Assembly: GCA_033119305.1 (NCBI GenBank)
Contig: VSWD01000002.1
Span: forward strand, 9,274,974-9,338,973
Direction of reading: 5' to 3'
Origin: Pinctada imbricata
Lineage: Eukaryota
DNA: 64,000 nucleotides
Shown piece after piece: positions 2,218 through 58,955 of this stretch; positions within the stretch are counted from its first letter, which is position 1, and the number at the start of each line of letters is the position of its first letter. The notes under the pieces are model-generated. The model saw only the letters and a program-made list of their open reading frames with translations. It searched no databases and was not told where the DNA came from. Both the position numbers and the translations under genes were made by a program.

Positions 2218-2654
2218 AAGTCCATGCTGAACTTTTATCTGTTCTTAAACGATGCTATTGATTTTGAAGACGTTTAACATTGGATAGTAAATGCAACCTT
2301 ATTTTTCACACATTTGCTTTATGAAAAAAATATCACTTTCATTAATTTTTGTTGTTGAAAAGATGGTATCAAGGGAATGTGAAGGAATAAACATCAGAGA
2401 AGTATACTTATACCTTCCATACGCATTTGTTTAAACCTTTTTTGTTTTAATTTACCTTTTTTATGTGTAACGGTTTTTCTCAAAGTATACATATAACTTT
2501 CATTCTCAATTTTTGGACAATTTTAGACGTGTTTTTATGAAACAAATACTGAAAATGTGTTCGCTTTTTGTCTTTTGATTCTGTTATGTTAACGGCGTAT
2601 GTTTAAGAATTTTGAAAAAAAAAAGTCGACAAACTAGAACTTCCCCACGCGAAA

Positions 2655-3590
2655 TGAAAATAGGACCAACATACAGAGACTGATACAAGAATGATACAAT
2701 CTCCACAGAAACACGAATGACAAACAGACGGAGACAATGACACAGCTCCACAGAAACACGAAGGACAAACAGACGGAGACAATGACACAAGCTCCACAGA
2801 AACACGAATGACAAACAGACAGAGACAATGACACAGCTCCATAGAAACACGAATGACAAACAGACAGAGACAATAACACAGCACCATAGAAACACGACGG
2901 ACAAACAGACGGAGACAATGACACAAGCTCAACAGAAACACGAAGGACAAACAGACGGAGACAATGACACAGCTCCACAGAAACACGAAGGACAAACAGA
3001 CGGAGACAATGACACAGCTCCACAGAAACACGAATGACAAACAGACAGAGACAATGACACAAGCTCCACAGAAACACGAAGGACAAACACACAGAGACAA
3101 TGACACAGCTTCATAGAAACACGAAGGACAAACAGACGGAGACAATGACACAAGCTCCACAGAAACACGAATGACAAACAGACAGAGACAATGACACAAG
3201 CTCCACAGAAACACGAATGACAAACAGACAGAGACAATGACACAGCTTCATAGAAACACGAAGGACAAACAGACAGAGACAATGACACAGCTCCACAGAA
3301 ACACGAAGGACAAACAGACAGAGACAATGACACAGCTCCACAGAAACACGAAGGACAAACAGACGGAGACAATGACACAGCTCCACAGAAACACGAAGGA
3401 CAAACAGACGGAGACAATGACACAGCTCCACAGAAACACGAAGGACAAACAGACGGAGACAATGACACAAGCTCCACAGAAACACGAAGGACAAACAGAC
3501 GGAGACAATGACACAGCTCCACAGAAACACGAAGGACAAACAGACGGAGACAATGACACAAGCTCCACAGAAACACGAAGGACAACTTAT
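2655..3590. repeat. Minisatellite, about 45-46 bp unit (caaacagacggagacaatgacacagctccacagaaacacgaagga) x about 20
   Basis: Direct periodicity visible in the sequence. The overlapping ORFs on both strands are repeat artefacts. Confidence 0.9.
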
Positions 3591-5505
3591 CTAAAGAACC
3601 ATCATCAGTGCAAGTGCGGAAGGTATTGTAGAATAATAGAATCTACCACGACGTTGAGACTGAGACAGGGAATGCACTAGGATGAGATTCCCCTGTCTCA
3701 GTCGTAACATCGTGATTGATTATTTTTCTCACTCACCTCATTTAATCATCACTTCAATGTTTTGAAAGCTAGAATCGATACCAATACTTACACAAATCTA
3801 ACGATGGCGTGACGTTATTTTCTATGACGTCATAATAGGATTCAAGTGGAGTGTGAGACAAGGAAATCTCAAACTGCTACGTCTACGTTTTTTCTTTTGT
3901 CTCACGACGTAAGTGAGTGAGAATGTACTTTATCCCACCTCTGGCAAATTTCTTGCAATCTGATTGGTCGAAAAGAGCCGAATACTATGTTGTATTATGT
4001 TACTGACATGATATTATTTTAATATCCTGCTTCTACAAAGACGCATTACGATTTTGACGTCACCGAGATGCTTTCCAAAACATGTTGACGTAACATACAC
4101 AAACCAAAAGCCATCGGTGGGATAAATTCGTTATACAGTGTTTTACAGGAGATACAATAATATATTGGGTCGCCTCGCCAAATACAACTTTTTTCATCGA
4201 CCTAATATATTTCTGTATCTCATCTGTAAAACACTGAATAACTAATAATAAATATTGCTGTTAAAACGCGCCGCACTAATTATTTCCATATCCACCATGT
4301 CTGATGCAACCATTATATCCATGCAGGTAGGACCAAAAAGAAAGCCCAAAGCCAATCCCAATTTCTGTCTTAGTGTAACCATCATTTGTGGTCGCGGCAT
4401 TGTCGTATTATTTGAGGTATTTTTACGAACGATATAAAGGCGTGGCAAATTTTATATATAATTTCAGGCTTTGAAATTTTCATTAATTTCGGTATCTATT
4501 TAATCAAGAAAACATCCTTCTCTTACCTAATTTTGAAATGTCTGTATTAGGAAAGGAACTACATGTACAGGAATTTCATACATAAAAAGAAATCTAAAGC
4601 ACTAATCAGTAGTGTCACATCTAAAGGCATTATAATCATTTTAAGCCACATCTTGGCATCAAATTAATCATGGTATTTCGCGGTTACGGGTAGGAGCACC
4701 TGATTGATCGAAAGACTGTGGTGAACAAAATTTCTTTCTACCTTTATATCACATGTTCATCATTTGATTTCGTACAGATAGCGTGTCAGCCTTCTTTATT
4801 GTATTTTTAATGTATCGGTTGACACAAGCTTTTCTTTTAATGTTTCGCATTCTTAAACTAAGTAAAATAAAAAAAAAACTTTTTTCTTTCTTTAGAATAT
4901 CACGCCAATCCTTTTCAAATTAATTCACTTTAATACAACGTACAGTATAACCAATCAAAAAATCTTGAATTTGTCGTACTATCTTGGCCGAAACGATAGA
5001 TTTTCAGGACAATAGAGCTTTAACTTGACTTCTGATTTGGAATGATAATTTTTCTTAAGGATTGATTCGGAATCAATATTCCTACAGAATCGAAAAATAA
5101 AATCTCACTATTTACTTTTAATGTAAAATAGCCATTGGCGTAAGAAACACTTTTAACAACGTTTTAATGGCGCCACCTACAATAAATTCCATTCTTGCAC
5201 GTTGTCCGTGTTGCGTTATTGTCTCCATCTGTTGTGTTTTTTTTTTCATTTCCGTGCGTGAACATTGTCGGTGGGTGCGGCTAGCCAAACAGGGGATGCT
5301 TACTCCTTCCGGGCACCTGGTCCTATCTCTAGCTTGTTAGGGTCGATACTCAATTTGGTGCTCAGGATCTTCTTCATCTCGCTTGAGACCACTGGATAAC
5401 CGGATACATGCGTGGGTTGTGCACATGTAATTCGGAAAATCACAACACTGGCTACTAACGTGACAGATGACCTTCCTTAGTGGATACCCATCGCCCATTG
5501 CTCTC

Positions 5506-5700: not shown

Positions 5701-6795
5701 GATGCCAACTTCGACGCACATCAGAAATGCCAGTAGCCAATTGTGTAGTTAACCGAATTACGAGCAAACAACCCTCCAAACAAGACAGCATGATGCAGGG
5801 GTCCAAGCAACACACCGATAGATATGTAAACAGATTTAAAAATAGAGGGCGACGTGCGAAATACAGTCTGTGCTCTGTCGGTTGTAGCGAGCTCATGCAT
5901 GTTATTAGTATCTCCCGAGGAGTCCGACCGACACTTTGAGAGGACAGGTAGCCCTGTCATTCTCCAACGAGGTTTTGACAAGGTCCGTGATGGAGTCTTG
6001 TAGTCACAGACAGTGTGTATAGTTATGTATAGTCTTGTAGGCTTGGTGTTTGATTCGTCTTTTGCTATTTCACACAGGGATGATTTGGTGTTTTTCGGTT
6101 TGTGCTGCAACTGTTTACTGTTGGAGTCCCCCTCCTCTCTATTTTTAAAGATTCGTTCATGCCATTTAGAATGTTGCTGTTCGTAGCAAACATGTACATT
6201 GCTTAAAACTGTACATTGCTTAAAACTGTATCAGATAAATCAGATACAAAACAAAGGAGGGGATCTCCAACAACACCAGGTTGTAGCACCCACAGCAAAA
6301 CCCCAAAACACCCTATGCAAAAACACAAAGCAGACAAGCACAAAGAGACGCGTAAGGGACAAGGAACGTCAACGCACAACACAAAAAACATCAAACACAA
6401 AGGATTACACATAAACCAACGAGACCAATGGGCAACCGGTGGCGACTTAGGATGGCCATCTGCCATGGAAATAGCAGAAGATATGGTTATCCTGGATTAC
6501 GTGCGCACAACCCTCCGACTTTTCCGATTACCTAGAGGTCTCGAAGAACGTACAATTGTGGTGTAAAACAACCTCCTCACTGTCAGATGACCACACACAA
6601 ACAAGACCGCAAACGCAGGGGCCCAAGCAACACAGATGAATATGTAAATGGATATAAAAAGAGGGCGTACGTAATACAATCCGTGATCTGCCGCCGCGAG
6701 CTCATGTATGATATCACCCGAGGAGTCCGACTGACATTCAGAGAGGACAGGTGGTCGGGGCCCTGTCTTCTCTGAAGAGGTTTGGACAGGGCCCG

Positions 6796-7467
6796 TCATG
6801 GAGTCCCGTCGTCACAGTCAGTCAGAGTGCAAGTTTTAAGAATGCGCTTGTACAAGACTGTAGATTGGTCATGTACCAAGCCTATAGTCCGTCTGGTGAC
6901 ATTAGGATCATACCCACGGTATAAAAGGCGTTTGATGATTCTGACGCATTTTCGATAGTGATGTTGTCTATCTTTGATCCTTCTTATCTTGTTAATTATG
7001 TCACTATAAAATGCAGGTAGTGAAAAACCCAAAGTAATATACTCTGTTGCCTGTATTGGTCCGAATTTCAGAAGAAGTTGACAATGATTTTTGTAAAATT
7101 TCCAGAAAGTCTTTACTAGTTTGTGAAAGCGAAAACCTTGTCCTAAAAGTTTCTTGGTAATTTGTAAATTTCTACTATGAAAATCCAAAACATCAGTACA
7201 TGCTCTAGCATACCGGATGAGCTGTGAAATATAGATACCATAGGACGGTAATCTAGGAACATCACCGTCAAGCCAGGGGAAATTTACTATGTTAAATCCA
7301 AAATCATCTCTTTTGTAATACACACTTGTATGGATCTCTCCATTAACAATTTTGATATTTAGGTCCAAAAAGGGTTTTTCTGTGTTTGAAACGTTTACCT
7401 TGTTTAAAATCAATTCTTGTGGATAAATAACATTTTTATATTTCTCAAAAACAGGATTGTCGATCAA
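6796..7467 (-). mobile_element. Second fragment of the same RT family (C-terminal part: YYKRDDFGFNIVNFPWLDGDVPRLPSYGIYISQLIRYARA...)
   Basis: Protein-level similarity to the 520-1149 ORF over about 60 residues. Further small fragments sit at 9940-10069 (+) and 19687-19780 (+, YRKCVRIIKSLLYRGY). Confidence 0.55.
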
Positions 7468-9210
7468 TTGATGAATTGCAAATCAATGAAACAATTGATG
7501 AATTGCAAAGAGTCCGATATTGATCCCACTGTTAAACTAATGCACAAAGACGTAATAATCAATGTATTCATGAAAGCATTCTATGATATTAAAAAATTAT
7601 GACGTCAAAATGTTAAAGTCCGTTTATGGTACGATGGTGGGTATCTATTGGTCCTTCATTAAGATGGTCATCGAGACTGACGGACTTGATTCAAATAATA
7701 GAATTTGTATTGACACAGAGCTCTAAATTGCTGTGCAAGTCTGTGAAGGAGGACCCTAGACTTGCTCATGTCCCTATATCAAATAAAGTTATTGAAAGAG
7801 AATTGCAATTATCAATCAAAATTTTCATGTCGAAAAGAAATGCCCCTTTAAAACTATAAGCAGTGAGCAATTGGTTGCAGAATCACTAAACAGAGAAGAA
7901 CATTTCGTAAGGCTATGAAGAGCTTTAGTTCAATTAATAAAAAAGTCATTTATTTAATTTTATAATTAAATTGATATAAGGACTTGAGCAAGTCTAGGAG
8001 GACTTAAGCTTTTCAATGACTAACTCTTCGTGTCTCGTCTTACATGGAAACTCTTGATACTGAACTGATTCAATATAAACTTGACGCCCTTACCCAAGGT
8101 TGATCCTGGGCACACTGCCGGCAGCAGGTGTTATATTCTATGAAATTGATTATTCATATAATGGCACAATTTCTATGACATAATAATAATCTAATATACC
8201 AGATATTGAATAGAAAATATATGTAAAAAGATGAATCAAAGGAAAAGGAAAACCAAACCATATTGTAATATCATGAGACATCTAGAGTTATTCAGTGTGA
8301 AGTTATTCTACAAAACAGTTAAAACTGCCTTAGTTGTCCATACATATGGAGAGGCTATCGTGTGTGACTAAGGATTTCATTTCTCAAGAAAAATGTTCAT
8401 GTGTATATGGTGTGAAATGGTGTTCCTTGTTCCTTATACGTCTCTTTCTGTGAGTTTCTACTCTGTGTGTTTTGGAGTTTTTCGTGGATGCTGCAAACGA
8501 GTGTTGTTGGAGATCCCCTATTTTCCTGTATAAAGAGATCACCTGTAATAAACATCAAAGAAGTACCTAACAGTTCTTCAGTCTCAAAGTCGAGAAGGCA
8601 AGGCAAAATCGTGAGCATTCCCATCGAAACGGTTGCGAACTCCGGAATGAACAACATTCCGAAGTGAGACCAGGTGCCCGGGGAGAGTCAGCATCTCCTG
8701 ATTGCATCTTATATGACATTCCCGCAAACGGTCTCTTAAGACAGGTGTAACTTTAGTTAAATACAGATAAGAGAGGATCTCCAACAAGAAGGCGTTGTAT
8801 TGGTCACTGTGGATCACACAGGCATGAAAAAAGAAATGTGAAAAACAAGAACAATTACATCATTACAACAAGTTCAAATTCAAGTTGAAATACTTTATTA
8901 ATGTGTCATATGCCAAATAAATCAATTACAATACCGTAGCTATAAGACAGTAATCATGTATATATGTCATTTAAAAATGTACCAAAGGTCTTTTGTTATT
9001 CATGTTTCTATGGTGTGAGTGGGTGTTCCTTGTCCCTTTTGCTTCTCTTTCTGTTGGTGCCTGCTCTATGTTTTTGCATAAGGTGTTTTTGCGTTTTGCT
9101 GCGGGTGATGCAACCGTGTGTTGTTGGAATCCCCAACTTTCTTTGCTACCGAGAAAAGAAAAAGCGCAAATACCGGCATAGACAGTCTGTTTGATTTACT
9201 ATATACACAG

Positions 9211-9480: not shown

Positions 9481-10479
9481 CAACGTACAGTTTGTATCGG
9501 TGTCTTTCCCAAAGTTGCGCACTGGCAAATCGTGACAAAGGGACTCCATAACTCTTTTAAATCTCGTCAGAGAAGACTGGGTTCTGATTCTCTGTCCTCA
9601 GACTTCTCGAGTGATTGATCTTGAGCTCGCTTCAGCCAGCAGAGCACAGACTGTTATACGCATGCCATAGAATATTTAAGCTCAATATACATAGAATCTG
9701 TGTTACGAGGGGCCGCTGCGTTTAACTTTCTCGTTTGTGATATCACCTAACAGTGAAGTTTTATGCTTATACAACGATTGTGCGTTTATTGAGATCTCTG
9801 TGTATCTGGATAAGTGGGAGGGTTGTGCGCATGTAAGCCGGATAACCACACCATTTGCTAATAGCAGATGGCTGTCCAAATACGGCGCCGGATGCACATT
9901 AGTGCTCAACAAAGCAAATGTCATAAACAAGAAAAAACCTATTTGGACCTCAATTTTAAACAGAGAAATTTATACAAGTGTGTATGACAAAAGGGATCCA
10001 TCATATTACACTTTTCTTTGCTTGACGGTGATGTTCCTAGACTACCATCATACGATATTTACATACTAGAATCTGAACTCATTCTATACACTAGGACATG
10101 TACTTATGGGTTTTTTTTTATTATTATTATTTTCACAGGAGAAATATGCAATTTATTTACAAAGTGTAATGTCTATGTTTCCACTTTCATAAACTAGACT
10201 TTCTGGGCCTTTTACAAAAATTACTTTGCGACGGGTGTTGCATGCAATCAGGAGACGCTGACTCTCCCCGGGCACCTGGTCTCACTTCGGAATGTTATTC
10301 ATTCTTTTGTTTGCAACCGTTCGAATAGGAATTCAAATGATTTTGCCTTGTCTTCTCGACTTTTTTACCTCTAGACTGAATAACTGATATGTAATTCTTT
10401 GATGTTCATTTCATCTTCGTTTGAAATTTGGACCTACACATGCATCAGACTATACTTCCTTTTGAATTTCTTAACCTAC

Positions 10480-10735: not shown

Positions 10736-11808
10736 ACCCCCTTGTAATTCTAAGATTGATTTAAAATTCAAGAATTGTAAAGCTCAGCTTCAGCCACCTT
10801 GAAGACTTTAATGACCTCATAGATATAAATTTCGCGCGTTTTCGATATTCCATTTTAAACCGGAAGCAAGAGTTTTCGCGGTAGTGTTATTGAATGAAAT
10901 CGCCCCTCACAGGTCAGTATGATGTGCTAAAAAAAAAAAAAAAAAATTTAATGACTCGTAACGCGTGACGGTTCTCAGTCAATACAAGTGGGAATATAAA
11001 TAAGACTATATAATAATTATGTTTATATTATTTGTATGTGATTTTGTTTCTCTTACGGTATAGCAAGATAAGAAATTTATCTCCAACATGACTATAATGC
11101 GATGGTCACGCGCTTGAAATGAGAAAAATGGAACTAAGAGACGAAGAGACGGAGGCATTGAGAAAAAGACATTTTTATTCCAACCATGACTTGAAATCTT
11201 GCGATTGTGCTCCATTGAAAATATTGGAACGTCTTTTGATGATTTTCCCTTGTTCTTTCAGAATACGATCTCGATTCATGCTTAAGTGAAGTAAGAAAAT
11301 GGCAACGGTATAAGATTAATACGGATATACCAAAGGATAAAGATGGAGACGTAGATGCTTATGGATAACAAACACAATGGAATAACTTATCATTGGGTAG
11401 ACCATGACTGCTCAACCCAAAAATTAATTTCTATCCTAAATGCTATTTCCTTATTAGTACATGACTTTCTAGTCTTCTGATTAAATATCGAGCAGTGTCG
11501 GTCTCTTTTCGCTTGCTATCTTAATGACAATTTATATTTCATCAATAAACAATTAGCTTGGATAGGAGATTATGACGTCATTTGATTGTTCAAGACTGCT
11601 TTGAGCGTCAACGTGACTTTTCAGTTGTTAAGTTTTACCACAAGCATTGCACCAAAATACTCAAATGACGTCACAAACCACAATTTTGGTTCTGCATACA
11701 GTGTTCAATAGTCTACATTGTTCTCTTGAAATGAATCTATTTTGATAAAGATTTTGAATTATATAATAAATGTATTTGCTGGTGAATGATTTGTTTAGAT
11801 TGAGGATC

Positions 11809-17899: not shown

Positions 17900-19610
17900 C
17901 TTTGGTTTACTTTTTGATTATTTTTGGAACAAGGTTCTGCTTTTGGTATAAATTCAAGTCATTATTGGAACAAGGTCTTGCTTCGGCATACCGTATATTG
18001 CAAGTCATTACTGGAACAAGGTCCTGCTTCGGCATACATTTCAAGTTGTTTGTGGAACAAGGCCTTGCATTTGGGCTTTTGGTATACATTAAAAATAAGT
18101 TTTGGAACAACATCCTGCCCTGACATACATTTCAAGTCATTATTGGACCAAAGCCATGCTTCGGCATGCATTGCAAGTCATTTTGGAACAAATCTTTGCT
18201 TTGGCATTCATTTCAAGTTATTTTGGAATAAAGGCCCTGCTTCGGCATACTTTGCAAGTCATTTTGGAAAAAAATCCAATGGCATGCTTTGGTATACATT
18301 TCAAGTTATTTTTGGAACAAGGCCCTGCTTCGGCATACATGTCAAGTCATTATTTGAACAAGGCCATGCTTCGGCATACATTGCAAGTCATTTTGGAACA
18401 AGGTCCTTTTTTCGGCATACATTGCAAGTTATTTGTGGAACAAGGCCTAGCTTTTGGTATACATTAAAAATCAGTTTTTTAACAACGTCCTGCTCTGGTA
18501 TACATTATAATTAAGTCATTATTGGAACAAGGCCCTGTTTCGGCATACAGTATATTGCAAGTCATTATTAGAACAAGGCCCTGTTTCGGCATACAGTATA
18601 TTGCAAGTCATTATTGGAACAAGGCCCTGTTTCGGCATACAGTATATTGCAAGTCATTATTGGAACAAGGCCCTGTTTCGGCATACAGTATATTGCAAGT
18701 CATTATTGGAACAAGGTCCTGTTTCGGCATACAGTATATTGCAAGTCATTATTGGAACAAGGCCCTGCTTCGGCATACCGTATATCTGAAGTCATTATTG
18801 GAACAAGGCCCTGCTTCGGTATACCGTATATTGCAAGTCATTATTGGAACAAGGCCCTACTTCGGCATACCGTATATCTCAAGTCATTATTGGAACAAGG
18901 CCTTGCTTCGGTACCGTATATTCCAAGTCATTATTGGAACAAGGTCCTGCTTCAGCATACCGTATATTGCAAGTCATTATTGGAACAAGGTCCTGCTTCG
19001 GTACCGTATATTGCAAGTCATTATTGGAACAAGGCCTTACTTCGGCATACATTATATTGCAAGTCATTATTGGAACAAGGCCCTGCTTCGGTATACCGTA
19101 TATTGCAAGTCATTATTGGAACAAGGCCCTACTTCGGCATACCGTATATTGCAAGTCATTATTAGAACAAGGCCCTACTTCGGCATACCGTATATCTCAA
19201 GTCATTATTGGAACAAGGTCCTGCTTCGGTACCGTATATTGCAAGTCATTATTGGAACAAGGCCCTGCTTCGGCATACAGTATATTGCAAGTCATTATTG
19301 TAACAAGGCCCTGCTTCGGCATACAGTATATTGCAAGACATTATTGGAACAAGGCCCTGCTTAGGTATACAGTATATTGCAAGTCATTATTGGAACAAGG
19401 CCCTGCTTCGGCATACCGTATATTCCAAGTCATTATTGGAACAAGGCCCTACTTCGGCATACCGTATATTACAAGTCATTATTGTGTCCTATGACACATT
19501 GGAACAAGGCTCTGTTTCGGCAAATACTGCAAGCCATTTTGTAACAAGGTCCTGCTTCGGCATATATTGCAAGTCATTATTGGAACAATTAAGTCACTTC
19601 TTAGTATAAA
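17900..19610. repeat. Satellite, about 46-bp unit (gcaagtcattattggaacaaggccctgcttcggcataccgtatatt) x about 36, 1.7 kb
   Basis: Regular period with point variants and some 9-bp deletions. Long + strand ORFs (18522-19494 etc.) are periodic-repeat artefacts. Confidence 0.92.
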
Positions 19611-22732: not shown

Positions 22733-22765
22733 ATGGCGTCTACGAAGGTTAAACAACAACAACAG
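22733..22765 (+). CDS. ATP1A: Na+/K+-ATPase alpha subunit, putative coding exon 1 (MASTKVKQQQQ), ends at donor CAG|gtaaat
   Basis: ATG in good Kozak context (acagagATGG). The short ORF ends at a consensus GTAAAT donor in phase 0 and joins exon 2 in frame. Exon 2 has no in-frame ATG before the conserved RADSYR N-terminal motif, so an upstream coding exon is required. Alternative first exons cannot be excluded. Confidence 0.45.
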
Positions 22766-25179: not shown

Positions 25180-25362
25180 AACCCTCGGGCGGACAGCTAC
25201 CGCTATGCTGTCACCCCGGGAGGGGAAGAGGTGGGGAAGAAGAAGAAGGGGAAGAAAGCCAAGAAGGAAAATCTCGATGACCTCAAACAGGAATTGGAGA
25301 TGGACGAACATAAAGTCCCCATTGAAGAATTATATCAGAGACTGGAAACAGACCCCAATGTG
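25180..25362 (+). CDS. ATP1A: Na+/K+-ATPase alpha exon 2 (NPRADSYRYAVTPGGEEVGKKKKGKKAKKENLDDLKQELEMDEHKVPIEELYQRLETDPNV)
   Basis: Acceptor tatttttag|AAC and donor GTG|gtaagc; 183 nt, phase 0-0. The lysine-rich N-terminal region and the KENLDDLKQEL / EELYQR motifs are typical of invertebrate Na/K-ATPase alpha. Confidence 0.85.
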
Positions 25363-27895
25363 GTAAGCGCTAACAGTAACATACAATAAAACATAAAGTC
25401 CCCATTGAAGAATTATATCAGAGACTGTAAACAGACCCCAATGTGGTAAGTGCTGACAGTAACATACAATAAAACATAAAGTCCCCATTGAAGAATTATA
25501 TCAGAGACTGTAAACAGACCCCAATGTGGTAAGTGCTGACAGTAACATACAATAAAACATAAAGTCCCCATTGAAGAATTATATCAGAGACTGGAAACAG
25601 ATCCCAATGTGGTAAGTGCTGACAGTAACATACAGTAAAACATAAAGTCCCCATTGAAGAATTATATCAGAGACTGGAAACAGACCCCAATGTGGTAAGT
25701 GCTAACAGTAACATACAATAAAACATAAAGTCCCCATTGAAGAATTATATCAGAGACTGGAAACAGACCCCAATGTGGTAAGTGCTAACAGTAACATACA
25801 ATAAAACATAAAGTCCCCATTGAAGAATTATATCAGAGACTGGAAACAGACCCCAATGTGGTAAGTGCTGACAGTAACATACAGTAAAACATAAAGTCCC
25901 CATTGAAAAATTATATCAGAGACTGGAAACAGATCCCAATGTGGTAAGTGCTGACAGTAACATACAGTAAAACATAAAGTCCCCATTGAAGAATTATATC
26001 AGAGACTGTAAACAGACCCCAATGTGGTAAGCCCTAACAGTAACATACAATAAAACATAAAGTCCCCATTGAAGAATTATATCAGAGACTGGAAACAGAC
26101 CCCAATGTGGTAAGTGCTGACAGTAACATACAGTAAAACATAAAGTCCCAATTGAAGAATTATATCAGAGACTGGAAACAGACCCCAATGTGGTAAGTGC
26201 TGACAGTAACATACAATAAAACATAAAGTCCCCATTGAAGAATTATATCAGAGACTGGAAACAGACCCCAATGTGGTAAGTGCTAACAGTAACGTACAAT
26301 AAAACATAAAGTCCCCATTGAAGAATTATATCAGAGAATTGAAACAGACCCCAATGTGGTAAGCCCTAACAGTAACATACAATAAAACATAAAGTCCCCA
26401 TTGAAGAATTATATCAGAGACTGGAAACAGACCCCAATGTGGTAAGTGCTAACAGTAACGTACAATAAAACATAAAGTCCCCATTGAAGAATTATATCAG
26501 AGAATTGAAACAGACCCCAATGTGGTAAGTGCTAACAGTAACGTACAATAAAACATAAAGTCCCCATTGAAGAATTATATCAGAGACTGGAAACAGACCC
26601 CAATGTGGTAAGCCCTAACAGTAACATACAGTAAAACATAAAGTCCCCATTGAAGAATTATATCAGAGTCTGGAAATAGACCCCAATGTGGTAAGTGCTA
26701 ACAGTAACATACAGTAAAACATAAAGTCCCCATTGAAGAATTATATCAGAGACTGGAAACAGACCCCAATGTGGTAAGTGCTGACAGTAACATACAATAA
26801 AACATAAAGTCCCCATTGAAGAATTATATCAGAGACTGGAAACAGACCCCAATGTGGTAAGCCCTAACAGTAACATACAATAAAACATAAAGTCCCCATT
26901 GAAGAATTATATCAGAGACTGGAAACAGACCCCAATGTGGTAAGTGCTAACAGTAACATACAATAAAACATAAAGTCCCCATTGAAGAATTATATCAGAG
27001 ACTGGAAACAGACCCCAATGTGGTAAGTGCTGACAGTAACATACGGTAAAACATAAAGTCCCCATTGAAGAATTATATCAGAGACTGGAAACAGATCCCA
27101 ATGTGGTAAGTGCTAACAGTAACATACAATAAAACATAAAGTCCCCATTGAAGAATTATATCAGAGACTGGAAACAGACCCCAATGTGGTAAGTGCTGAC
27201 AGTAACATACAGTAAAACATAAAGTCCCCATTGAAGAATTATATCAGAGACTGGAAACAGACCCCAATGTGGTAAGTGCTGACAGTAACATACAATAAAA
27301 CATAAAGTCCCCATTGAAGAATTATATCAGAGACTGGAAACAGACACCAATGTGGTAAGTGCTGACAGTAACATACAATAAAACATAAAGTCCCCATTGA
27401 AGAATTATATCAGAGACTGGAAACAGACCCCAATGTGGTAAGTGCTAACCGTAACATACAGTAAAACATAAAGTCCCCATTGAAGAATTATATCAGAGAC
27501 TGGAAACAGACCCCAATGTGGTAAGCGCTAACAGTAACATACAATAAAACATAAAGTCCCCATTGAAGAATTATATCAGAGACTGGAAACAGACCCCAAT
27601 GTGGTAAGTGCTGACAGTAACATACAATAAAACATAAAGTCCCCATTGAAGAATTATATCAGAGACTGGAAACAGACCCCAATGTGGTAAGCGCTAACAG
27701 TAACAGTAACATACAGTAAAACATAAAGTCCCCATTGAAGAATTATATCAGAGACTGGAAACAGACCCCAATGTGGTAAGCGCTAACAGTAACATACAGT
27801 AAAACATAAAGTCCCCATTGAAGAATTATATCAGAGACTGGAAACAGACCCCAATGTGGTAAGCGCTATAAACAGTAACAGTAACATACAGTAAA
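25363..27895. repeat. Intronic tandem array, 83-bp unit x about 30, each unit being the last 52 nt of ATPase exon 2 plus the first 31 nt of intron 2, including the GTAAGT donor
   Basis: The unit cataaagtccccattgaagaattatatcagagactggaaacagaccccaatgtg|gtaagtgctgacagtaacatacaataaaa repeats immediately downstream of the authentic exon 2 donor. Confidence 0.9.
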
Positions 27896-28143: not shown

Positions 28144-28347
28144 GGACACTCCGTGGAGGAAGCCAAGAGAATTTTGGAAAGAGATGGTCCCAATGAGTTA
28201 ACGCCCCCTAAAACTACTCCAGAATGGGTCAAGTTTTGTAAGCAGCTTTTTATGGGCTTTTCCATGTTGCTGTGGATAGGAGCCATTCTGTGTTTTATAG
28301 CTTACTCAATCCAGGCCTCGGCGTATGAAGATCCACCGGGTGATAAC
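28144..28347 (+). CDS. ATP1A: Na+/K+-ATPase alpha exon 3 ([22 protein letters not shown]...[13 protein letters not shown]; TM1 and first extracellular loop)
   Basis: Acceptor ctttgcag| and donor AAC|gtaagt; 204 nt. Strong similarity to the ARDGPNALTPP...[10 protein letters not shown] block. Confidence 0.9.
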
Positions 28348-28854
28348 GTAAGTCGTTAGGCAAAAATTGACTCTGTGATACTTATAATTATTGTAGATAC
28401 ATGTACTAGATATTTCATGCATTATATGAATATATGATTACTTTTCTCTTGAAAAATCCTTTGGTTCAACACTATTAGAGAAGCGAATATGGAAAAAAAT
28501 GTACAAGTGCAGAATGTAAGGATGATGCTTTTGAGAGGTTCATTACAAATTTGTAAAATGTTTACTGCATTTTAGAGAAAGTTGCGAATTGCTATACCTG
28601 ATTTTATATATATGCATGTAATGGGAAATAAAATCATTGTTTGAATAGTTGTTTAAAAGCTTCTTTGTTGTAGGTTCATCATGATGACTATGTATTATGT
28701 TTTATAATTAATTTGAGTTGTAAATACATGTAACTCCATGCTATAAATGATTACTCTGCCTGGGCTACACCAATCTCAGACTTTGAGAGGGTCCCTGGAT
28801 CAAAGAGAGATAACTCTAGTTTCACTTTCCATAACCGCCAGTTGTCCATTTCAG

Positions 28855-28968
28855 TTGTACTTAGGTATTGTGCTCACTGCTGTTGTCGTAGTTACGGGAG
28901 TATTCTCCTATTACCAAGAAGCTAAAAGTTCTAAAATTATGGATTCCTTCAAAAACATGGTCCCACAG
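28855..28968 (+). CDS. ATP1A: Na+/K+-ATPase alpha exon 4a ([38 protein letters not shown]; TM2), first copy of a duplicated exon
   Basis: Acceptor ccatttcag| and donor CAG|gtagga; 114 nt, phase 0-0. Confidence 0.85.
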
Positions 28969-29474
28969 GTAGGAATGTATTATATTTATACCATGCTAGA
29001 GCACCATGTGAAGGTGTACATCATAGACAAAATGAGAGCCAGAATCTGATTGGACAAAAAAAAAAATACCGCTGTCTCTGATTGGTCTATTCAGATTCAA
29101 AAATAAGGTAATGATTTAGCAAGTATTCGGAATTCAGAAAAAAACTTTAGGTGGCAAAAAGCCATTTCAAAGGATTTTTCTGACAACCAATTTTAAGCCA
29201 TTTCAAAGGATTTTTCTGACAACTGACAACCAATTTCTAGGTTGCCGAGGCTTATTCTTGTAGTCTGCTATTACTATTTGACAAAGAGTCTGAAACCTTT
29301 ATCCAAAATTTGTAGGAAACTGTTCCATCTAAGAATAAAAAGTATATCTTGCGCCCAGTTGTTGCTTTAAAAATCACATGATGGCTCTCATTTTTTGATG
29401 CACACTTTTAGACAGTGCCAGAAGTTTTGCTAAGATTTGAAAATTCACTGGCATGCTTCACGTTCTATTTTCAG

Positions 29475-29588
29475 TTATATTTAGGTATTGTGTTAACGGC
29501 GGTCGTGGTTGTTACGGGGTGTTTCTCGTACTACCAAGAAGCCAAAAGTTCACGAATTATGGACTCCTTTAAAAACATGGTTCCTCAG
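29475..29588 (+). CDS. ATP1A: Na+/K+-ATPase alpha exon 4b ([38 protein letters not shown]), second copy, likely mutually exclusive with 4a
   Basis: Acceptor ctattttcag| and donor CAG|gtaacc; 114 nt. It encodes the same 38 residues as 4a with only 2 amino-acid differences, despite about 25 synonymous nucleotide differences. Confidence 0.8.
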
Positions 29589-31496
29589 GTAACCATTTTA
29601 TGGTAACCACGGTAATGCTGTGGCTGATAGGCTTAACCCTAGCCAATCATGTGCAAGCTCTGTATCTCACTGCTTATGTGTGAAATACTTTTTCTATTAT
29701 TTTATACTTTCGTTTGCAACATGGTGTTGTAATATAGAATGTACTAACAATATTGGAAATGTTCGAAGTTTTATGGTTAGGCGGTATCAGGATTTTATTA
29801 CACATTTATACTTTTACGTATATGCAGTGTGTTTGGTCAGTATTTATCTATGAAATATAAGAAGAACATTTACTATACAATTACTATTCTATGTATAACT
29901 GTATATTTGAATTTGAAATTCATAATGAATTTATCACTTATTAAAAAATGTAGAATAATTTTACCAAAAGAAAGAAACAATATCATGAATATGTACTCGT
30001 AAAATAAATGAATAATGTAAAATCAACCTTAAGAACTTCATGTAGGAATCAAACTAGATATGAAACCAAACAAAATCTTACCTTATAATGTATTAAAACA
30101 AAATGTTATTAAAGTCATGTGTTAGAGCATAATAGGAGATATTTTAAGAAAAATGGATTCAAAATCTGGAGGGAAAATTAGTCTGAAAGAACTAAATCAC
30201 AGACAGGCTGATTTTATCAATAACATTTTCCAGAATTTCAAAATGCTGTATATATTTCATGAAGCTTCACCTATTGATGCATCTTGTATATAAACTTGCG
30301 CTGTTACAAGCAATTGTATAGTAATAATAAAAATTATAGTATACCAACAAATATTTTAGTCAAAATAACGGCTGTATCCTTCATACACTTACTATCGTAT
30401 CTGTTATAATGATATAACTGGCTATAATTACCTAAGCTTTCGGCATTGTAAAAGCTTATCATACCATATGTATATCGCCTGTACAAATACTACAATTCCT
30501 TATTCGTTGTTGTTTAACTTAGTCATAGAAAAGGAATGATAATGATATGATAGAAGAAAGCTGTAGCTTATAGAAAAAAATTCAAGTAACATGGTTTTTT
30601 AGTTGCCAAATTATTAATGTAGACTTTTTTTTTTACCTATTTTGCTGATACGTAAGTCAGGACATCTTTACCTTATATGCAGGTTATGACGCTTACCCAT
30701 TGACAAAGAAACTTAAACTCTTCAAATAATTCATTTCTCAAAGTCAGTAAGTAATGTACATGTATAAATCAATATGAGTGACAGAATTTATCTTTAATCA
30801 TTTTAGAACTCTGGGTCGCAAAATTCTCTTTGTATCTTAGTGCATTGGAGACTTTCAGAATTCAAGAGAGATAACTCCTAAATCTAAAAAAAAAAAAAAA
30901 AAGAAATGTGTAGGATGTGTTCTTCGGGAAAAACTAATTGGAGTATGGGAGGGACTTGAGGGAGATAACATTCGAGTTAGACCCTAAGTGGCCTAGATCA
31001 GGTGCCTTTTTTATTTAGAAGCCATCTTTTCATTTTCTTGAAAGAACTAACATAAAATTGTATGGTCTCTTTGACAAATTTAATATTGCCTAGAGATTTC
31101 TGGCTTTATTAATACCATTACCAAATATGTCTTCCTCTACTTAAATTACAGTACCTGTATACATTCTAATTATGCAGTTACAAAATTATTATAGAGAAAG
31201 CTTTTCAACAAAGAAAATCACAAGCAAGCACTGCACTAGAAGTAATTGGCCTCAAGTAATTATATGAATATAAAAATATTTATCATCATTAGAAATAAGA
31301 AGTACACGGCACCTTAGTAAATAACAGTATACATGATATGTGTATCTCAATATCTCTAATTTACCTTTAAAAACATATATTGTAGAATTCTGTATTATAG
31401 TTATAATTATAGAATCTAACATTTTACCATATTTAACAATCACATCTATGCCGAATTCAACAAATGTTTTAACGGTAACATTGATTCTAAATTTAG

Positions 31497-31631
31497 TACG
31501 CTGTCGTAACGAGAGGTGGAGAGAAGCACAACATTAAGGCTGAGGAGATTGTATTAGGTGACATCGTCGACATCAAGTTTGGAGACAGAGTACCGGCTGA
31601 TGTAAGAGTTATCACGGCACATGGATTTAAG
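31497..31631 (+). CDS. ATP1A: Na+/K+-ATPase alpha exon 5 ([45 protein letters not shown])
   Basis: Acceptor aaatttag| and donor AAG|gtcagt; 135 nt, phase 0-0. Matches the A-domain GDxVExKxGDRxPAD block. Confidence 0.88.
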
Positions 31632-32013: not shown

Positions 32014-32131
32014 GTGGATAACTCTTCACTTACTGGAGAATCTGAACCCCAGTCCCGTGGTGCAGACTTCACCAATGAGAACCCGCTCGAGACCAAGAAC
32101 CTGGCTTTCTTCTCTACTAACGCTGTAGAAG
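32014..32131 (+). CDS. ATP1A: Na+/K+-ATPase alpha exon 6 ([40 protein letters not shown])
   Basis: Acceptor cttgacttcaag| and donor G|gtagga; 118 nt, ends phase 1. Conserved TGES motif. Confidence 0.9.
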
Positions 32132-32605: not shown

Positions 32606-32874
32606 GTACATGTAAAGGCGTTGTCATTCGTTGCGGAGATCAAACTGTCATGGGTCGTATTGCCAACTTAGCGTCAGGTCTAGAAGTCGGAGAGACGCCC
32701 ATCGCCAAGGAAATCGCTCATTTTATCCATATCATTACGGGAGTGGCTGTGTTTCTGGGGGTGTCATTCTTCGTCATTGCCTTTATTTTGGACTATTTCT
32801 GGCTGGATGCCGTCATTTTCTTGATCGGTATTATTGTCGCTAACGTACCAGAAGGATTACTTGCAACTGTCACC
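32606..32874 (+). CDS. ATP1A: Na+/K+-ATPase alpha exon 7 ([25 protein letters not shown]...[17 protein letters not shown]; TM3-TM4)
   Basis: Acceptor ctatctttgcag| and donor ACC|gtaagt; 269 nt, phase 1-0. Conserved PEGLLATVT motif. Confidence 0.9.
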
Positions 32875-33228: not shown

Positions 33229-34996
33229 TTGCAAAACTCGGCTCTTAATTTGATGTGAGACGGGCGGGCGGGCGGGCGTCTGGGCGGGCGGGAGGGCGTC
33301 AACAATTGGTTTCCGGACTATAAGTCAACTACGAAAGAGGCTATAACAATGAAACTTCATACACTTACTCACCATTAGTCAAGGATGAGCCCTATTGATT
33401 TTGGGGTCAAAAGGTCAAAGGTCAAGGTCACAGGACTCAGATGATTGAAAATGGTTTCCGGACCATATTATAGCCTGTATTGCACCTATAATCATGAAAC
33501 TTGCCAGAAATGTTTCCCTTGAATCAAGGATGAGGCCTATTGATTTTGGGGTCAAAAGGTCAAAGGTCAAGGTCACAGGACTCAGATGATTGAAAATGGT
33601 TTCCAGACCATATTTCAGCCTGTATTGCACCTATAATCATGAAACTTGCCAGAAATGTTTCCCTTGAATCAAGGATGATGCCTATTGATTTTGGGGTCAA
33701 AAGGTCAAAGGTCAAGGTCGCAGGACTCTGATGATTGAAAATGGTTTCCTGGCCATATTTTAGCCTGTATTGCACCTAAAGTCATGAAACTTGCCAGAAA
33801 TGTTTCCCTTGAATCAAGGATGAGGCCTATTGATTTTGGGGTCAAAAGGTCAAAGGTCAAGGTCACAGGACTCAGATGATTGAAAATGGTTTCCAGACCA
33901 TATTTCAGCCTGTATTGCACCTATAATCATGAAACTTGCCAGAAATGTTTCCCTTGAATCAAGGATGATGCCTATTGATTTTGGGGTCAAAAGGTCAAAG
34001 GTCAAGGTCACAGGACTCTGATGATTGAAAATGGTTTCCTGGCCATATTTTAGCCTGTATTGCACCTATAATCATGTAACTTGCCAGAAATGTTTCCTGT
34101 GAATAGAAAATGACCACTTTTGATTTTGGGGTCAAAAGGTCAAAGGTCAAGGTCACAGGACTCTGATGATTGAAAATGGTTTCCTGGCCATATTTTAGCC
34201 TGTATTGCACCTAAAGTCATGAAACTTGCCAGAAATGTTTCCCTTGAATCAAGGATGAGGCCTATTGATTTTGGGGTCCAAAGGTCAAGGTCACAGGACT
34301 CTGTTGATTGAAATTGGTTTTCGGACCATATTTCAGCCTGTATTGCACCTATAATCATGTAACTTGCCAGAAATGTTTTCTGTGAATAGAAAATGACCAC
34401 TTTTGATTTTGGGGTCAAAAGGTCAAAGGTCAAGGTCACAGGACTCTGATGATTGAAAATGGTTTCCTGGCCATATTTTAGCCTGTATTGCACCTAAAGT
34501 CATGAAACTTGCCAATAATGATTCCCTTGAATCAAGAATGACCCCTATTGATTTTGGGGTCAAAAGGTCAAAGGTCAAGGTCACAGGACTCCGATGATTG
34601 AAAGTGGTTTCCGGACCATATTTCAGCCTGTATTGCAATTATAATCATGAAGCTTGCCAGAAATGTTTCCCATGGATCAAGGATGACCACTATCAATTTT
34701 GGGGTTCAAAGGTCAAAGGTCAAGGTCACAGGACTTAGATGATTAAAAATGATTTTCCGACTGAATTTGAGCCTGTATTGCACCTATTATCATGTAACTT
34801 GCCAGAAATGTTTCCTATTAATTTTGGGGTCAACAGATCAAAGGTCAAATTCATAGGACTCGTTAATTGAAAATGGTTTCTGAATTATATATGAATGTGG
34901 ATCAACCTGAAACATGCTAATAATGTTTCCCATCTGTCGAGACCATATTCAAATCATGTATATTTTACTTATATTCAAGTTTTGCAACTCGGCACT
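33229..34996. mobile_element. TIR-flanked non-autonomous element in ATPase intron 7: termini GCCGAGTTGCAAAACT (palindromic at the 5' end), a GGGCGGGC-rich head, and about 10 tandem 145-bp units containing AGGTCAAAGGTCAAGGTCA
   Basis: 5' end agccgagttgcaaaactcggct and 3' end agttttgcaactcggc form inverted termini. Internal 145-bp periodicity; the six 71-aa minus-strand ORFs and the one 117-aa ORF are artefacts. This resembles the satellite-carrying MITE/Helitron-N elements reported in bivalves. Confidence 0.6.
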
Positions 34997-35040: not shown

Positions 35041-35239
35041 GTGTGCCTGACCTTGACTGCCAAACGTATGGCCAAGAAGAATTGTCTGGTCAAGAACTTG
35101 GAAGCCGTAGAAACTCTCGGATCTACATCCACCATCTGCTCTGATAAAACTGGAACACTCACCCAAAACAGAATGACTGTGGCTCACATGTGGTTTGACG
35201 GCAAAATCGTGGAAGCTGACACCAGTGACGACCAATCAA
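35041..35239 (+). CDS. ATP1A: Na+/K+-ATPase alpha exon 8 ([66 protein letters not shown]), contains the DKTGT phosphorylation site
   Basis: Acceptor tttaatgtag| and donor A|gtgagt; 199 nt, ends phase 1. The P-type ATPase signature DKTGTLT is read directly from the translation. Confidence 0.92.
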
Positions 35240-35820: not shown

Positions 35821-35932
35821 ATGCCCAGTATGGAACTGGAGATACAACATGGATGGCTCTATCTACCATTGCTATGTTATGTAACAGGGCTGAGTTTGTA
35901 GCCGGTCAGGAAAATGTACCCGTACTTAAAAG
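35821..35932 (+). CDS. ATP1A: Na+/K+-ATPase alpha exon 9 ([38 protein letters not shown])
   Basis: Acceptor gtaattccag| and donor AG|gtaggt; 112 nt, phase 1-2. Confidence 0.85.
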
Positions 35933-37881: not shown

Positions 37882-38014
37882 AGATGCTAACGGTGATGCC
37901 TCAGAATCTGCCTTACTGAAGTGTGTAGAGCTCTCCATCGGTAAAGTTACAGAATTCAGGAGGAAAAACAAGAAAATCTGTGAAATTCCATTCAACTCTT
38001 CTAACAAATATCAA
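37882..38014 (+). CDS. ATP1A: Na+/K+-ATPase alpha exon 10 ([45 protein letters not shown])
   Basis: Acceptor ttgttctcag| and donor CAA|gtaaga; 133 nt, phase 2-0. Conserved [10 protein letters not shown] and PFNSTNKYQ blocks. Confidence 0.88.
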
Positions 38015-38850: not shown

Positions 38851-39043
38851 GTATCTATTCACGAGACCGAGGACCCCAGCGACCCCCGATATCTCCTTGT
38901 GATGAAGGGAGCCCCAGAAAGGATCCTGGACAGGTGTTCGTCCATACTACATAACGGCAAGGAGGTTCCCCTCGATGATCAGTTCAGGGATGCTTTTAAC
39001 TCAGCGTATATGGAATTAGGAGGTCTTGGAGAGAGAGTGTTAG
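38851..39043 (+). CDS. ATP1A: Na+/K+-ATPase alpha exon 11 ([65 protein letters not shown])
   Basis: Acceptor cattatag| and donor G|gtatgt; 193 nt, ends phase 1. Conserved [13 protein letters not shown] motif. Confidence 0.9.
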
Positions 39044-39455: not shown

Positions 39456-39631
39456 GATTCTGTGATTATATTCTCCCCGAGGACGCTTACCCACCAGGCT
39501 ATCCATTTGACGCTGACGAACAGAACTTCCCACTTACCGGACTACGATTTGTTGGTCTTATGTCTATGATCGATCCACCAAGAGCTGCCGTACCTGATGC
39601 TGTCGCTAAATGCAGAAGTGCCGGAATTAAG
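39456..39631 (+). CDS. ATP1A: Na+/K+-ATPase alpha exon 12 ([59 protein letters not shown])
   Basis: Acceptor ttattgcag| and donor AAG|gtgggt; 176 nt, phase 1-0. Conserved [13 protein letters not shown] block. Confidence 0.9.
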
Positions 39632-40053: not shown

Positions 40054-40190
40054 GTTATCATGGTTACTGGTGATCATCCAATCACTGCCAAGGCCATTGC
40101 TAAAGGTGTCGGTATCATCTCTGAGGGAAGCAAGACGATTGAGGACCTCGCTAACGAACGTGGTGTGCCTGTGGAAGAAGTCGATCCTAA
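40054..40190 (+). CDS. ATP1A: Na+/K+-ATPase alpha exon 13 ([46 protein letters not shown])
   Basis: Acceptor tttacatag| and donor AA|gtatgt; 137 nt, ends phase 2. Confidence 0.9.
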
Positions 40191-41967: not shown

Positions 41968-42185
41968 AGAGGCCAAGGCTGCCGTTATCCACGGTATGGA
42001 TCTTCGTGACATGACTCCGGCTCAGATTGATGAGATTCTCCGTAACCACCCTGAGATTGTGTTCGCCAGGACGTCACCACAGCAAAAACTGATCATTGTA
42101 GAAGGTTGTCAAAGACAAGGCCAGATTGTAGCCGTAACTGGTGACGGTGTCAACGACTCGCCCGCTCTCAAAAAGGCTGATATCG
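41968..42185 (+). CDS. ATP1A: Na+/K+-ATPase alpha exon 14 ([73 protein letters not shown])
   Basis: Acceptor ccttacag| and donor G|gtaagg; 218 nt, phase 2-1. Conserved [17 protein letters not shown] hinge motif. Confidence 0.92.
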
Positions 42186-42498: not shown

Positions 42499-42639
<141 letters not shown>

Positions 42640-43048: not shown

Positions 43049-43298
43049 GACGCTTGATCTTTGACAACTTGAAGAAATCCATCGCCTACACACTGACTTC
43101 CAACATTCCTGAGATTTCCCCGTTCTTGTTATTCATCACAATGTCCATTCCTCTACCCCTCGGAACCATCACCATTCTATGTATCGATCTCGGAACTGAC
43201 ATGGTACCAGCTATCTCGCTCGCCTACGAGGGACCAGAAAGTGACATCATGAAGAGGCAGCCACGTGACCCCATCAAGGACAAACTTGTCAATGAAAG
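43049..43298 (+). CDS. ATP1A: Na+/K+-ATPase alpha exon 16 ([29 protein letters not shown]...[32 protein letters not shown]; TM5-TM6)
   Basis: Acceptor ctttttacag| and donor AG|gttggt; 250 nt, phase 1-2. Confidence 0.9.
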
Positions 43299-43730: not shown

Positions 43731-43905
43731 GTTGATCTCCATGGCCTATGGTCAGATTGGTATGATTCAGGCCTCCTCAGGTTTCTTTGTTTATTTTGTC
43801 ATTATGGGTGAGAACGGTTTCTGGGCCTCCAAGTTGATTGGAATCCGTAAACAATGGGACTCGCTGGCTGTTAATGACATTGAAGACTCTTATGGACAAG
43901 AATGG
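43731..43905 (+). CDS. ATP1A: Na+/K+-ATPase alpha exon 17 ([59 protein letters not shown]; TM7)
   Basis: Acceptor ttaattacag| and donor TGG|gtaaga; 175 nt, phase 2-0. Confidence 0.9.
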
Positions 43906-44390: not shown

Positions 44391-44521
44391 ACATACAGTC
44401 AGAGAAAGATCCTTGAGTACACGTGTCACACGGCTTTCTTCGTCTCCATCGTAGTCGTACAGTGGGCTGATTTAATCATCTGTAAAACCAGAAGGCTCTC
44501 ACTCTTCCAGCAAGGAATGAA
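44391..44521 (+). CDS. ATP1A: Na+/K+-ATPase alpha exon 18 ([44 protein letters not shown]; TM8)
   Basis: Acceptor cgttctacag| and donor AA|gtaagt; 131 nt, phase 0-2. Confidence 0.9.
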
Positions 44522-44924: not shown

Positions 44925-45026
44925 GAATCACCATCTTACATTTGGTCTGTTCTTTGAGACCTGCCTTGCCGCCTTTATGACGTACTGCCCAGGTTTGGAC
45001 CAGGGACTCCGCATGCAGAATCTCAG
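44925..45026 (+). CDS. ATP1A: Na+/K+-ATPase alpha exon 19 ([33 protein letters not shown]; TM9)
   Basis: Acceptor tatcttacag| and donor AG|gttggt; 102 nt, phase 2-2. Confidence 0.88.
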
Positions 45027-45389: not shown

Positions 45390-45510
45390 ATTCACCTGGT
45401 GGTTCCCTGCCATGCCATTCAGTTTACTTATCTTTATATATGATGAATGCAGAAAGTACATCCTCAGACGTAATCCCGGAGGTTTTGTTGAAAGAGAGAC
45501 ATACTATTAA
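45390..45510 (+). CDS. ATP1A: Na+/K+-ATPase alpha terminal coding exon ([40 protein letters not shown]; TM10 and C-terminal ETYY)
   Basis: Acceptor tattttcag| and stop TAA at 45508-45510; 121 nt. The canonical C-terminal ...ETYY is present. A candidate polyA signal AATAAA lies near 45954, but the true 3' end is unverified. Confidence 0.9.
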
Positions 45511-55946: not shown

Positions 55947-56293
55947 CCAATTGTGCCTCACATGAAATTCATATGAAATGAGCATCATGTAAATTTCACA
56001 TGAAAGTTCATGTGAAATTCATATAAATTTCACGTAAGATTTATGTTAAATATTTTCCACCTGAATTTCACATGGATTTACTTCAGTCATGAATTTTACA
56101 TGAATTTTTCTTTGTGACCACTATGCGAAATTGAATTCACATAAAATGTTTGTCAGAAACTTCACATGAATTTCATTTGAAAAATTTCATGTAAATTTCA
56201 TGTTTGTGCTCGTTTCACATAAATTTCATGTGAACTTTTATGTAAAAACGATGTAAATTTCACATGAATTTCATATGAGGCACAATTGGCTGT
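55947..56293. mobile_element. MITE, 347 bp, with 23-bp TIRs CAGCCAATTGTGCCTCA(C/T)ATGAA and internal (acatgaaatttcacatgaa)-type palindromic repeats
   Basis: 5' end cagccaattgtgcctcacatgaa and 3' end ttcatatgaggcacaattggctg are reverse complements. Confidence 0.8.
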
Positions 56294-56317
56294 GTATAAT
56301 GTACAGATCATGTTCAT

Positions 56318-56860
56318 GTGAATAAATTGATATTCATTATTGTTGTGAATGAACTGATATTCATTATTGTTGTGGGTGAACTGATATTCATTAATATTGT
56401 AAATGTATTGATATTCATTATTGTTGTGAATGAACTGATATTCATTATTGTTGTGAATGAACTGATATTCATCATTGTTGTGAATAAACTGATATTCATT
56501 ATTGTTGTGAATAAACTGATATTCATTATTGTTGTGAATGTATTGATATTCATTACTGTTGTGAATTAACTGATATTCATTATAGTTGTGAATGAACTAA
56601 TATTCATTATTGTTTTGAATGAACTAATTTTCATTATTGTTGTGAATGTATTGATATTCATTATTGTTGTGGGTGAACTGATATTCATTAATATTGTGAA
56701 TGTATTGATATTCATTATTGTTGTGAATGAACTGATATTCATTATTGTTGTGAATGAACTGATATTCATTATTGTTGTGAATAAACTGATATTCATTATT
56801 GTTGTGAATAAACTGATATTCATTATTGTTGTGAATGAACTGATATTCATTATTGTTGTA
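56318..56860. repeat. Minisatellite, 27-bp unit (tgaatgaactgatattcattattgttg) x about 20
   Basis: Direct periodicity; the overlapping ORFs on both strands are artefacts. Confidence 0.9.
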
Positions 56861-58812: not shown

Positions 58813-58955
58813 CTGAAAATAAGAACAGAAAATAGTAAAAACTGAGAGTTTCACTTATTTCACTATGATCAGCTGTACATAACGATTTACTAATACAAAC
58901 ACTTTTAATTCGACATAACCCCCTTCCCCTAATTTAAATTTAAATTATATGGTTA

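Follow-up and report, generated by a model that had tools for sequence, protein, structure and literature searches.

A tandem-duplicated, very probably mutually exclusive TM2 exon pair in the Na/K-ATPase alpha-subunit gene of a pearl oyster

Tandem duplication of an exon followed by mutually exclusive use of the copies is a well-known kind of alternative splicing. Competing RNA structures are an established means of controlling such exons, as in Dscam exon 6, 14-3-3xi, and srp, and in the model of Ivanov and Pervouchine (PMC6071210). For the sodium pump, an 'exon 6b' and 'two alternatively spliced exons' of Drosophila ATPalpha are mentioned (PMC6733596). Alternative ATPalpha exons in insects are mentioned there only indirectly, and a search of the accessible literature found no description of a pair of exons for the second transmembrane segment (TM2, or M2) in molluscs. 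The exon pair described here, from a pearl oyster, is tandem-duplicated and very probably mutually exclusive, and thus belongs to this familiar kind. Its novelty lies in its occurrence in a mollusc, in the correction it brings to a protein model in the public record, and in a candidate RNA element open to testing.

The analysed DNA, referred to here as the window, is a single 64-kb stretch of the Pinctada imbricata genome. It contains a complete Na/K-ATPase alpha-subunit gene of the pearl oyster Pinctada fucata/imbricata. Exons were placed by tblastn and inspection of every junction, with a human ATP1A1 sequence serving as a guide only. All introns of the resulting gene model are GT-AG, and its parts outside the duplicated pair are as follows:

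22733-45510, plus strand: coding span of the Na/K-ATPase alpha-subunit gene, with 21 coding exons counting 4a and 4b, the ATG at 22733, and a stop codon ending at 45510
22733-22765, plus strand: coding exon 1, carrying the ATG
25180-25362, plus strand: coding exon 2
28144-28347, plus strand: constitutive exon 3 (204 nt), encoding M1 and the M1-M2 extracellular loop, ending ...EDPPGDN in phase 0, donor gtaagt
31497-31631, plus strand: constitutive exon 5 (135 nt)
32014-32131, 32606-32874, 35041-35239, 35821-35932, 37882-38014, plus strand: the coding exons that follow exon 5
38851-39043, 39456-39631, 40054-40190, 41968-42185, 42524-42625, plus strand: coding exons of the middle part
43049-43298, 43731-43905, 44391-44521, 44925-45026, 45390-45510, plus strand: coding exons of the 3' part

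The two copies 4a and 4b lie between exons 3 and 5. With 4a alone, the model is identical over 1034 aa to a P. fucata protein in GenBank (AYN73065.1); with 4a and 4b joined, it is 100% identical to the 1072-aa product of the P. imbricata genome annotation (KAK3107351.1). The gene has the full-length homology, the DKTGT motif, and the ten-helix architecture of a Na/K-ATPase alpha subunit (a P2C-type ATPase), the phosphorylation motif CSDKTGTLT being encoded in the exon at 35041-35239. Alignment of the Pinctada region with solved ATP1A1 structures is gapless (E ~1e-93). The duplicated 114-nt exon codes for M2 together with the first part of the linker that joins it to the actuator (A) domain. 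A preliminary description, made from the nucleotide sequence, had identified it as the TM2 exon of a Na/K-ATPase alpha gene, an assignment borne out by the tblastn gene model, the identity to AYN73065.1, and the structural alignment.

Two of the introns of this gene are rich in tandem repeats. An 83-bp array of 30.8 copies, 96% identical, occupies 25307-27868 on the plus strand. Each unit comprises the final ~56 nt of coding exon 2 (...HKVPIEELYQRLETDPNV) and its 5' splice site (GTG|GTAAGY), followed by 27 intronic nt. The true end of exon 2 is formed by the first copy, so that intron 2 holds ~30 near-perfect decoy donors; each unit also contains an in-frame TAA, so that choice of a later donor would lead to a premature stop. 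A second array (145 bp, 10 copies, 89% matches) lies at 33379-34815 on the plus strand, within the intron between the exons at 32606-32874 and 35041-35239, and is crossed by long minus-strand open frames.

Outside the pump gene, further long tandem-repeat tracts are found at 2587-3677, 18000-19600, and 56200-57000, with long repetitive open frames in several frames and on both strands. The sole Rfam match in the window above its gathering score is SECIS_1, at 6744-6807 on the minus strand (39.2 bits against a threshold of 35; E = 2e-4). It adjoins reverse-transcriptase-like open frames on the same strand (523-1167 and 6799-7482), so that the match could have arisen by chance within a retroelement. 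Downstream of the pump gene and on the opposite strand, a hydrophobic-rich open frame at 58492-58854 (…GIGIFGCLGACCEWRPLL…) resembles an exon coding for part of a small multi-pass membrane protein.

The duplicated exons and the intron that separates them are:

28855-28968, plus strand: exon 4a, 114 nt, phase 0-0, the V16/K27 version of TM2 and the copy found in P. fucata AYN73065.1
28969-29474, plus strand: intron between 4a and 4b, 506 nt, U2-type GT-AG
29475-29588, plus strand: exon 4b, 114 nt, phase 0-0, the C16/R27 version of TM2

Direct reading of positions 28500-30000 places each exon behind a pyrimidine-rich tract that ends in tttcag, the splice contexts being tttcag|TTG...CAG|gtagga for 4a and tttcag|TTA...CAG|gtaacc for 4b. 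Exon 4b has a good polypyrimidine tract, intact AG and GT dinucleotides, and no stop codon; its donor, gtaacc, lacks a G at +5. The exon starts are 620 nt apart. The pair is therefore real: the preliminary description, which had reported two 114-nt exons 620 bp apart, each with its own acceptor and donor, was exact in coordinates, length, and spacing. It had put the nucleotide differences at about 25, where the count is 23 (79.8% identity), and was right that only two of 38 residues differ (V/C and K/R; 94.7% identity). These differences fall in 19 codons, 17 of which change synonymously only; in 16 of the 17 the third position alone is altered, and the remaining one, a Leu codon (CTC/TTA), changes at positions 1 and 3.

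A repeat search delimits the direct repeat around 4a and 4b to 123 nt, that is, the exon and a few bases of splice consensus. Because the repeat stops at the exon borders, the introns flanking 4a and 4b are unrelated to each other. An assembly or haplotype duplication as the origin of the pair is ruled out by these unrelated flanks together with the 20% divergence, almost all of it synonymous. Sensitive tblastn and blastn searches of the 64-kb window returned no third or decayed copy of the TM2 exon, the copies being two only. The two exons thus show the hallmarks by which mutually exclusive exons (MXEs) are recognized in a genome: they are adjacent, homologous, and equal in length and phase, and each is open in frame and flanked by an acceptor and a donor of its own that look functional.

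A further hallmark is purifying selection on both copies. By the Nei-Gojobori method, 4a and 4b differ at a proportion pS of 0.72 of synonymous sites, which is saturated, and at a proportion pN of 0.054 of nonsynonymous sites, giving a dN/dS of ~0.02; this is the calculation between the exon copies that the preliminary description had called for. When 23 random substitutions were placed on exon 4b in 200,000 neutral trials, the mean outcome was 15 amino acid changes, and a stop codon was gained in 64% of trials. None of the 200,000 trials produced two or fewer amino acid changes without a stop (P < 5e-6). A copy that had been neutral over any substantial share of the time since duplication would look otherwise, and both 4a and 4b have therefore been under strong purifying selection at the protein level, as had been proposed at the outset when neither copy appeared to be decaying. 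Such selection shows that both exons are likely to be translated often enough to matter; it is no proof of a functional difference between them.

The same exon is multiplied in other protostomes. In the brachiopod Lingula anatina, just two residues, both within the TM2 exon, distinguish RefSeq isoforms X1 and X2, and the locus contains four tandem copies:

7015-7128, 8450-8563, 10251-10364, 10995-11108 (piece of LFEI02000353.1): Lingula TM2 exon copies, each 114 nt with AG/GT borders and an open frame

Isoforms X1 and X2 use the first two copies only, the remaining two being found in neither; copy 4 is the most divergent and ends in ...MKMQTK, not ...NMVPQ. Nemertean isoforms, namely Lineus longissimus X1-X3 and Tubulanus polymorphus X1/X2, vary solely within the TM2 exon. 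In Tubulanus the two isoforms differ at two residues, one of which is the K/R switch at position 27, as in Pinctada. Among crustaceans, Oratosquilla oratoria and Cherax quadricarinatus carry an Ala27 or an Arg27 version of the exon, one per RefSeq isoform, and proteins of Orthoptera, Hemiptera, and Thysanoptera include both an Ala27-type and a Lys27-type exon. Tandem TM2 exon copies also occur in non-RefSeq gene models of Homarus, Ephemera, Armadillidium, and Ladona. A different exon, at residues ~834-865, sets apart the RefSeq isoforms of equal length that were compared in Holometabola, Collembola, and Penaeus. The analogy with arthropod Na/K-ATPase alpha genes drawn in the preliminary description thus holds at the level of the very same exon for crustaceans and several non-holometabolous insect orders, but not for Holometabola, whose compared RefSeq isoforms vary at residues ~834-865.

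How the two Pinctada copies are used can be approached from the products on record. AYN73065.1 contains 4a and not 4b; it has no attached genomic contig and looks mRNA-derived. Since it contains 4a alone, 4a is usable with 4b skipped. The only public product with 4b is KAK3107351.1, which also has 4a, in tandem with it. Joined copies are what the preliminary description had named as evidence against exclusive use, and they occur in this annotation model. The tandem arrangement in KAK3107351.1 is probably an artefact of ab initio prediction, because the same pattern is seen in the non-RefSeq automated models of Homarus, Ephemera, Armadillidium, and Ladona, because each isoform in RefSeq models that draw on transcript evidence contains a single copy, and because a second hydrophobic segment after M2 would be expected, from P-type ATPase architecture, to invert the topology. 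The isoforms of related pumps and the make-up of the two exons argue strongly that each mRNA carries one copy, 4a and 4b being mutually exclusive. Exon 4b is presumably spliced in, and 4a and 4b are presumably never joined to each other. Joining of exons 3, 4a, and 5 would then give a Val/Lys pump, and joining of exons 3, 4b, and 5 a Cys/Arg pump. The favoured reading, to which a probability of roughly 0.7 is given, is an ancient tandem duplication in the bivalve lineage of which both copies are functional, with one per mRNA.

Other readings of the locus have to be weighed against this one. The annotation itself would be taken at face value if both exons were included in a pump of 1072 aa that really exists and has its M2 segment twice; KAK3107351.1 is precisely that product, and the frame is kept, as 114 = 3 x 38. 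Yet AYN73065.1 from P. fucata lacks 4b, the arrangement recurs in the four automated models just named whereas the RefSeq isoforms of related species have one copy each, and an extra helix after M2 would, by P-type ATPase topology, misplace the actuator domain and everything downstream of it across the membrane, in a protein whose alignment to solved pumps is gapless. Double inclusion is accordingly regarded as very improbable. Exon 4b might instead be an unused relic, a silent duplicate that has recently lost its expression, with 4a alone spliced into mRNA. The sole single-copy product on record is indeed the 4a-only form, and no 4b-only sequence came to light: the 90% cluster of the Pinctada protein has two members, the 4a-only and the both-exon forms, and a 191-aa query spanning exons 3-4b-5-6 gave no Pinctada fragment, its best match being 78-80% identical. 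The missing +5 G of the 4b donor would also suit a relic. The pattern of substitution speaks against it, since synonymous sites are saturated beside a pN of 0.054 and a long-neutral copy would, by the simulation, be unrecognizable, and so do the intact splice dinucleotides, polypyrimidine tract, and open frame of an exon whose peptide is that of Mytilus and gastropods. An unused 4b would fit only if silencing had been very recent, and this account is judged improbable.

It is also conceivable that both exons are used but the choice between them is stochastic and the isoforms functionally equivalent, selection being maintained by a sizeable share of transcripts for each copy (entrenchment) and not by specialization. 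This account turns on the two variable residues. By alignment, and in the numbering of pig alpha1 (7d91), exon position 16 corresponds to Cys138, in the cytoplasmic half of M2, and exon position 27 to Lys149, in the helix extension toward the A domain. Both differences are conservative or semi-conservative, and the sites concerned are among the four at which the exon varies most: across 93 distinct protostome versions, position 16 ranks second and position 27 fourth of 38 in entropy. Vertebrate alpha1, moreover, shows a mixed C/K state at these positions. On the other side, the pair has been kept for long enough to saturate synonymous sites, and in all ten multi-copy species the alternative copies carry different residues at position 27, a statistic that is not compelling alone; the arthropods among them are not mutually independent. 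Stochastic choice between equivalent isoforms is considered unlikely, and two functional copies used one per mRNA remain the preferred interpretation.

Several of the usual means of enforcing exclusivity do not apply to the pair. Steric exclusion, which operates where the intron between variants is shorter than ~60 nt, is ruled out by an intron of 506 nt, in which >100 nt would be left even with an internal 23-nt stem formed. Incompatibility of U2 and U12 splice sites, for which one flanking intron would need a donor of the form /RTATCCTT, is ruled out by donors gtaagt, gtagga, and gtaacc and by acceptors that are all ag. Policing by frame shift and nonsense-mediated decay (NMD) is ruled out as well. 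Exon 3 ends in phase 0 and both copies are in phase 0-0, so the frame is kept with both exons or with neither; double inclusion and double skipping of 3 x 38 nt are in frame, and the both-exon product is open over 1072 aa.

What the introns do offer is a short complementarity, the elements of which are:

28451-28463, plus strand: intron 3 element GAAAAATCCTTTG, a candidate docking site 104 nt past the donor of exon 3
29159-29187 and 29195-29223, plus strand: 29-nt direct repeat, two exact copies in the intron between 4a and 4b, with a candidate selector in each
29168-29180 and 29204-29216, plus strand: the two copies of candidate selector CAAAGGATTTTTC, inside the 29-nt direct repeat

The docking candidate is a perfect 13-nt complement of the selector candidate at both of its sites, with a duplex energy of -17.5 to -19 kcal/mol. 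A complement of that length arose in one of 300 dinucleotide shuffles (P ~0.003), and the 13-mer occurs just three times in the 64-kb window when up to one mismatch is allowed. In a possible mechanism, the 13-nt element shortly after exon 3 would form a duplex with one or other of the candidate selector copies upstream of 4b. Pairing would loop out 4a and place 4b beside exon 3; without pairing, the proximal exon 4a would be chosen. That RNA pairing of the Dscam exon 6 kind sets the choice between 4a and 4b is put forward with low confidence, as a suggestion from complementarity and analogy. No long complement of intron 3 or of the middle intron was found in the intron after 4b (P ~0.9 against shuffles), and whole-intron RNAduplex energies among intron 3, the 4a-4b intron, and the intron between 4b and exon 5 were no better than those of dinucleotide shuffles (15 of 60 and 13 of 30 as good or better). 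The Lingula cluster has only low-complexity inverted repeats of A/T runs, and no clear docking and selector set was found in it.

The intron between 4a and 4b also contains a 23-nt inverted repeat (29029-29051 and 29372-29394), 87% complementary and with an energy of about -26 kcal/mol. It encloses 320 nt, including both selector candidates, and may be either a stem within the intron or the two ends of a small transposon.

Of six bivalve genera in the comparison, Pinctada alone has the duplication; the orthologous genes of Crassostrea virginica, Mytilus edulis, Pecten maximus, Tegillarca granosa, and Sinanodonta woodiana have a single TM2 exon. The 4b peptide is identical to that of the single-copy Mytilus exon and of many gastropods, including Biomphalaria and Aplysia. 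At the nucleotide level, 4b differs from the Mytilus exon at 14 positions, without amino acid change, and from 4a at 23. At synonymous sites, 4a and 4b (0.72) have diverged as far as bivalve orders have from one another (0.56-0.81). A neighbor-joining (NJ) tree of the exon sequences sets all bivalve exons, including 4a and 4b, apart from the four Lingula copies with 100% bootstrap, a split that base composition could inflate, as GC3 in Lingula is much higher (0.5-0.76). The tree points to independent duplications in Pinctada and Lingula. Its resolution within bivalves is weak (4a with Crassostrea, 33%; 4b with Mytilus, 52%), and synonymous sites are saturated in all comparisons, so that a date for the duplication is not obtainable. 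The duplication nevertheless appears old, and would have occurred either before the pteriomorph radiation, with several later losses, or on the pteriid branch.

A wider interpretation is possible but doubtful. The TM2 exon of the protostome sodium pump may be a recurrent or very old duplication hotspot, shared by a bivalve, a brachiopod, nemerteans, and pancrustaceans, in which a switch at the equivalent of Lys149 (K/R/A), often combined with one at the equivalent of Cys138 (C/V/I), would give kinetically distinct isoforms and so provide an invertebrate counterpart of the vertebrate alpha1-alpha4 paralogues. In Pinctada, on the same tentative footing, the choice would be made by a docking/selector RNA loop around 4a.

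The pair has consequences beyond the gene itself. The public protein model KAK3107351.1 is corrected, its duplicated membrane helix being very probably absent from the real protein, and a mollusc joins the phyla with a multiplied sodium-pump TM2 exon. The two variable residues would amount to a simple natural experiment on M2 and the A-domain linker of P-type ATPases. Should the isoforms differ in ion affinity or kinetics, they would be relevant to osmoregulation and to ion transport in the formation of shell and pearls in a farmed species. The 13-nt complementarity, in turn, constitutes a small testable system for the control of exon choice by RNA structure outside arthropods.

Compared with docking/selector systems of the Dscam exon 6 type, Pinctada shares a tandem exon array and a short element just 3' of the upstream constitutive exon that is complementary to elements upstream of the distal variant. 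It differs in having one candidate 13-bp pairing, seen in one genome, with two putative selector copies for one variant and no selector at 4a or in the intron after 4b. The second arthropod ATPalpha cluster, at residues ~834-865 in the M7 region, belongs to the same gene family and follows the same principle of same-length alternative exons, but it involves a different exon, and Pinctada has a single copy of that region (43731-43905). Closer are the clusters of Lingula, Lineus, and Tubulanus, where the same exon is present at the same length and isoforms differ only within it, with AG/GT intact on each Lingula copy; copy number there is 2-4. The pair of crustaceans and non-holometabolous insects likewise consists of the same 38-residue, 114-nt exon (LYLG...VPQ) in tandem, with one copy per RefSeq isoform and a difference at position 27. 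In arthropods, an Ala27-type copy is followed by a Lys/Arg27-type copy and the two differ at 3-6 residues, whereas in Pinctada the order is Val16/Lys27, then Cys16/Arg27, and an Ala27 type is absent. Judged by these residue types there is no sign of a shared duplication, and the Pinctada pair would nonetheless work like the arthropod pair.
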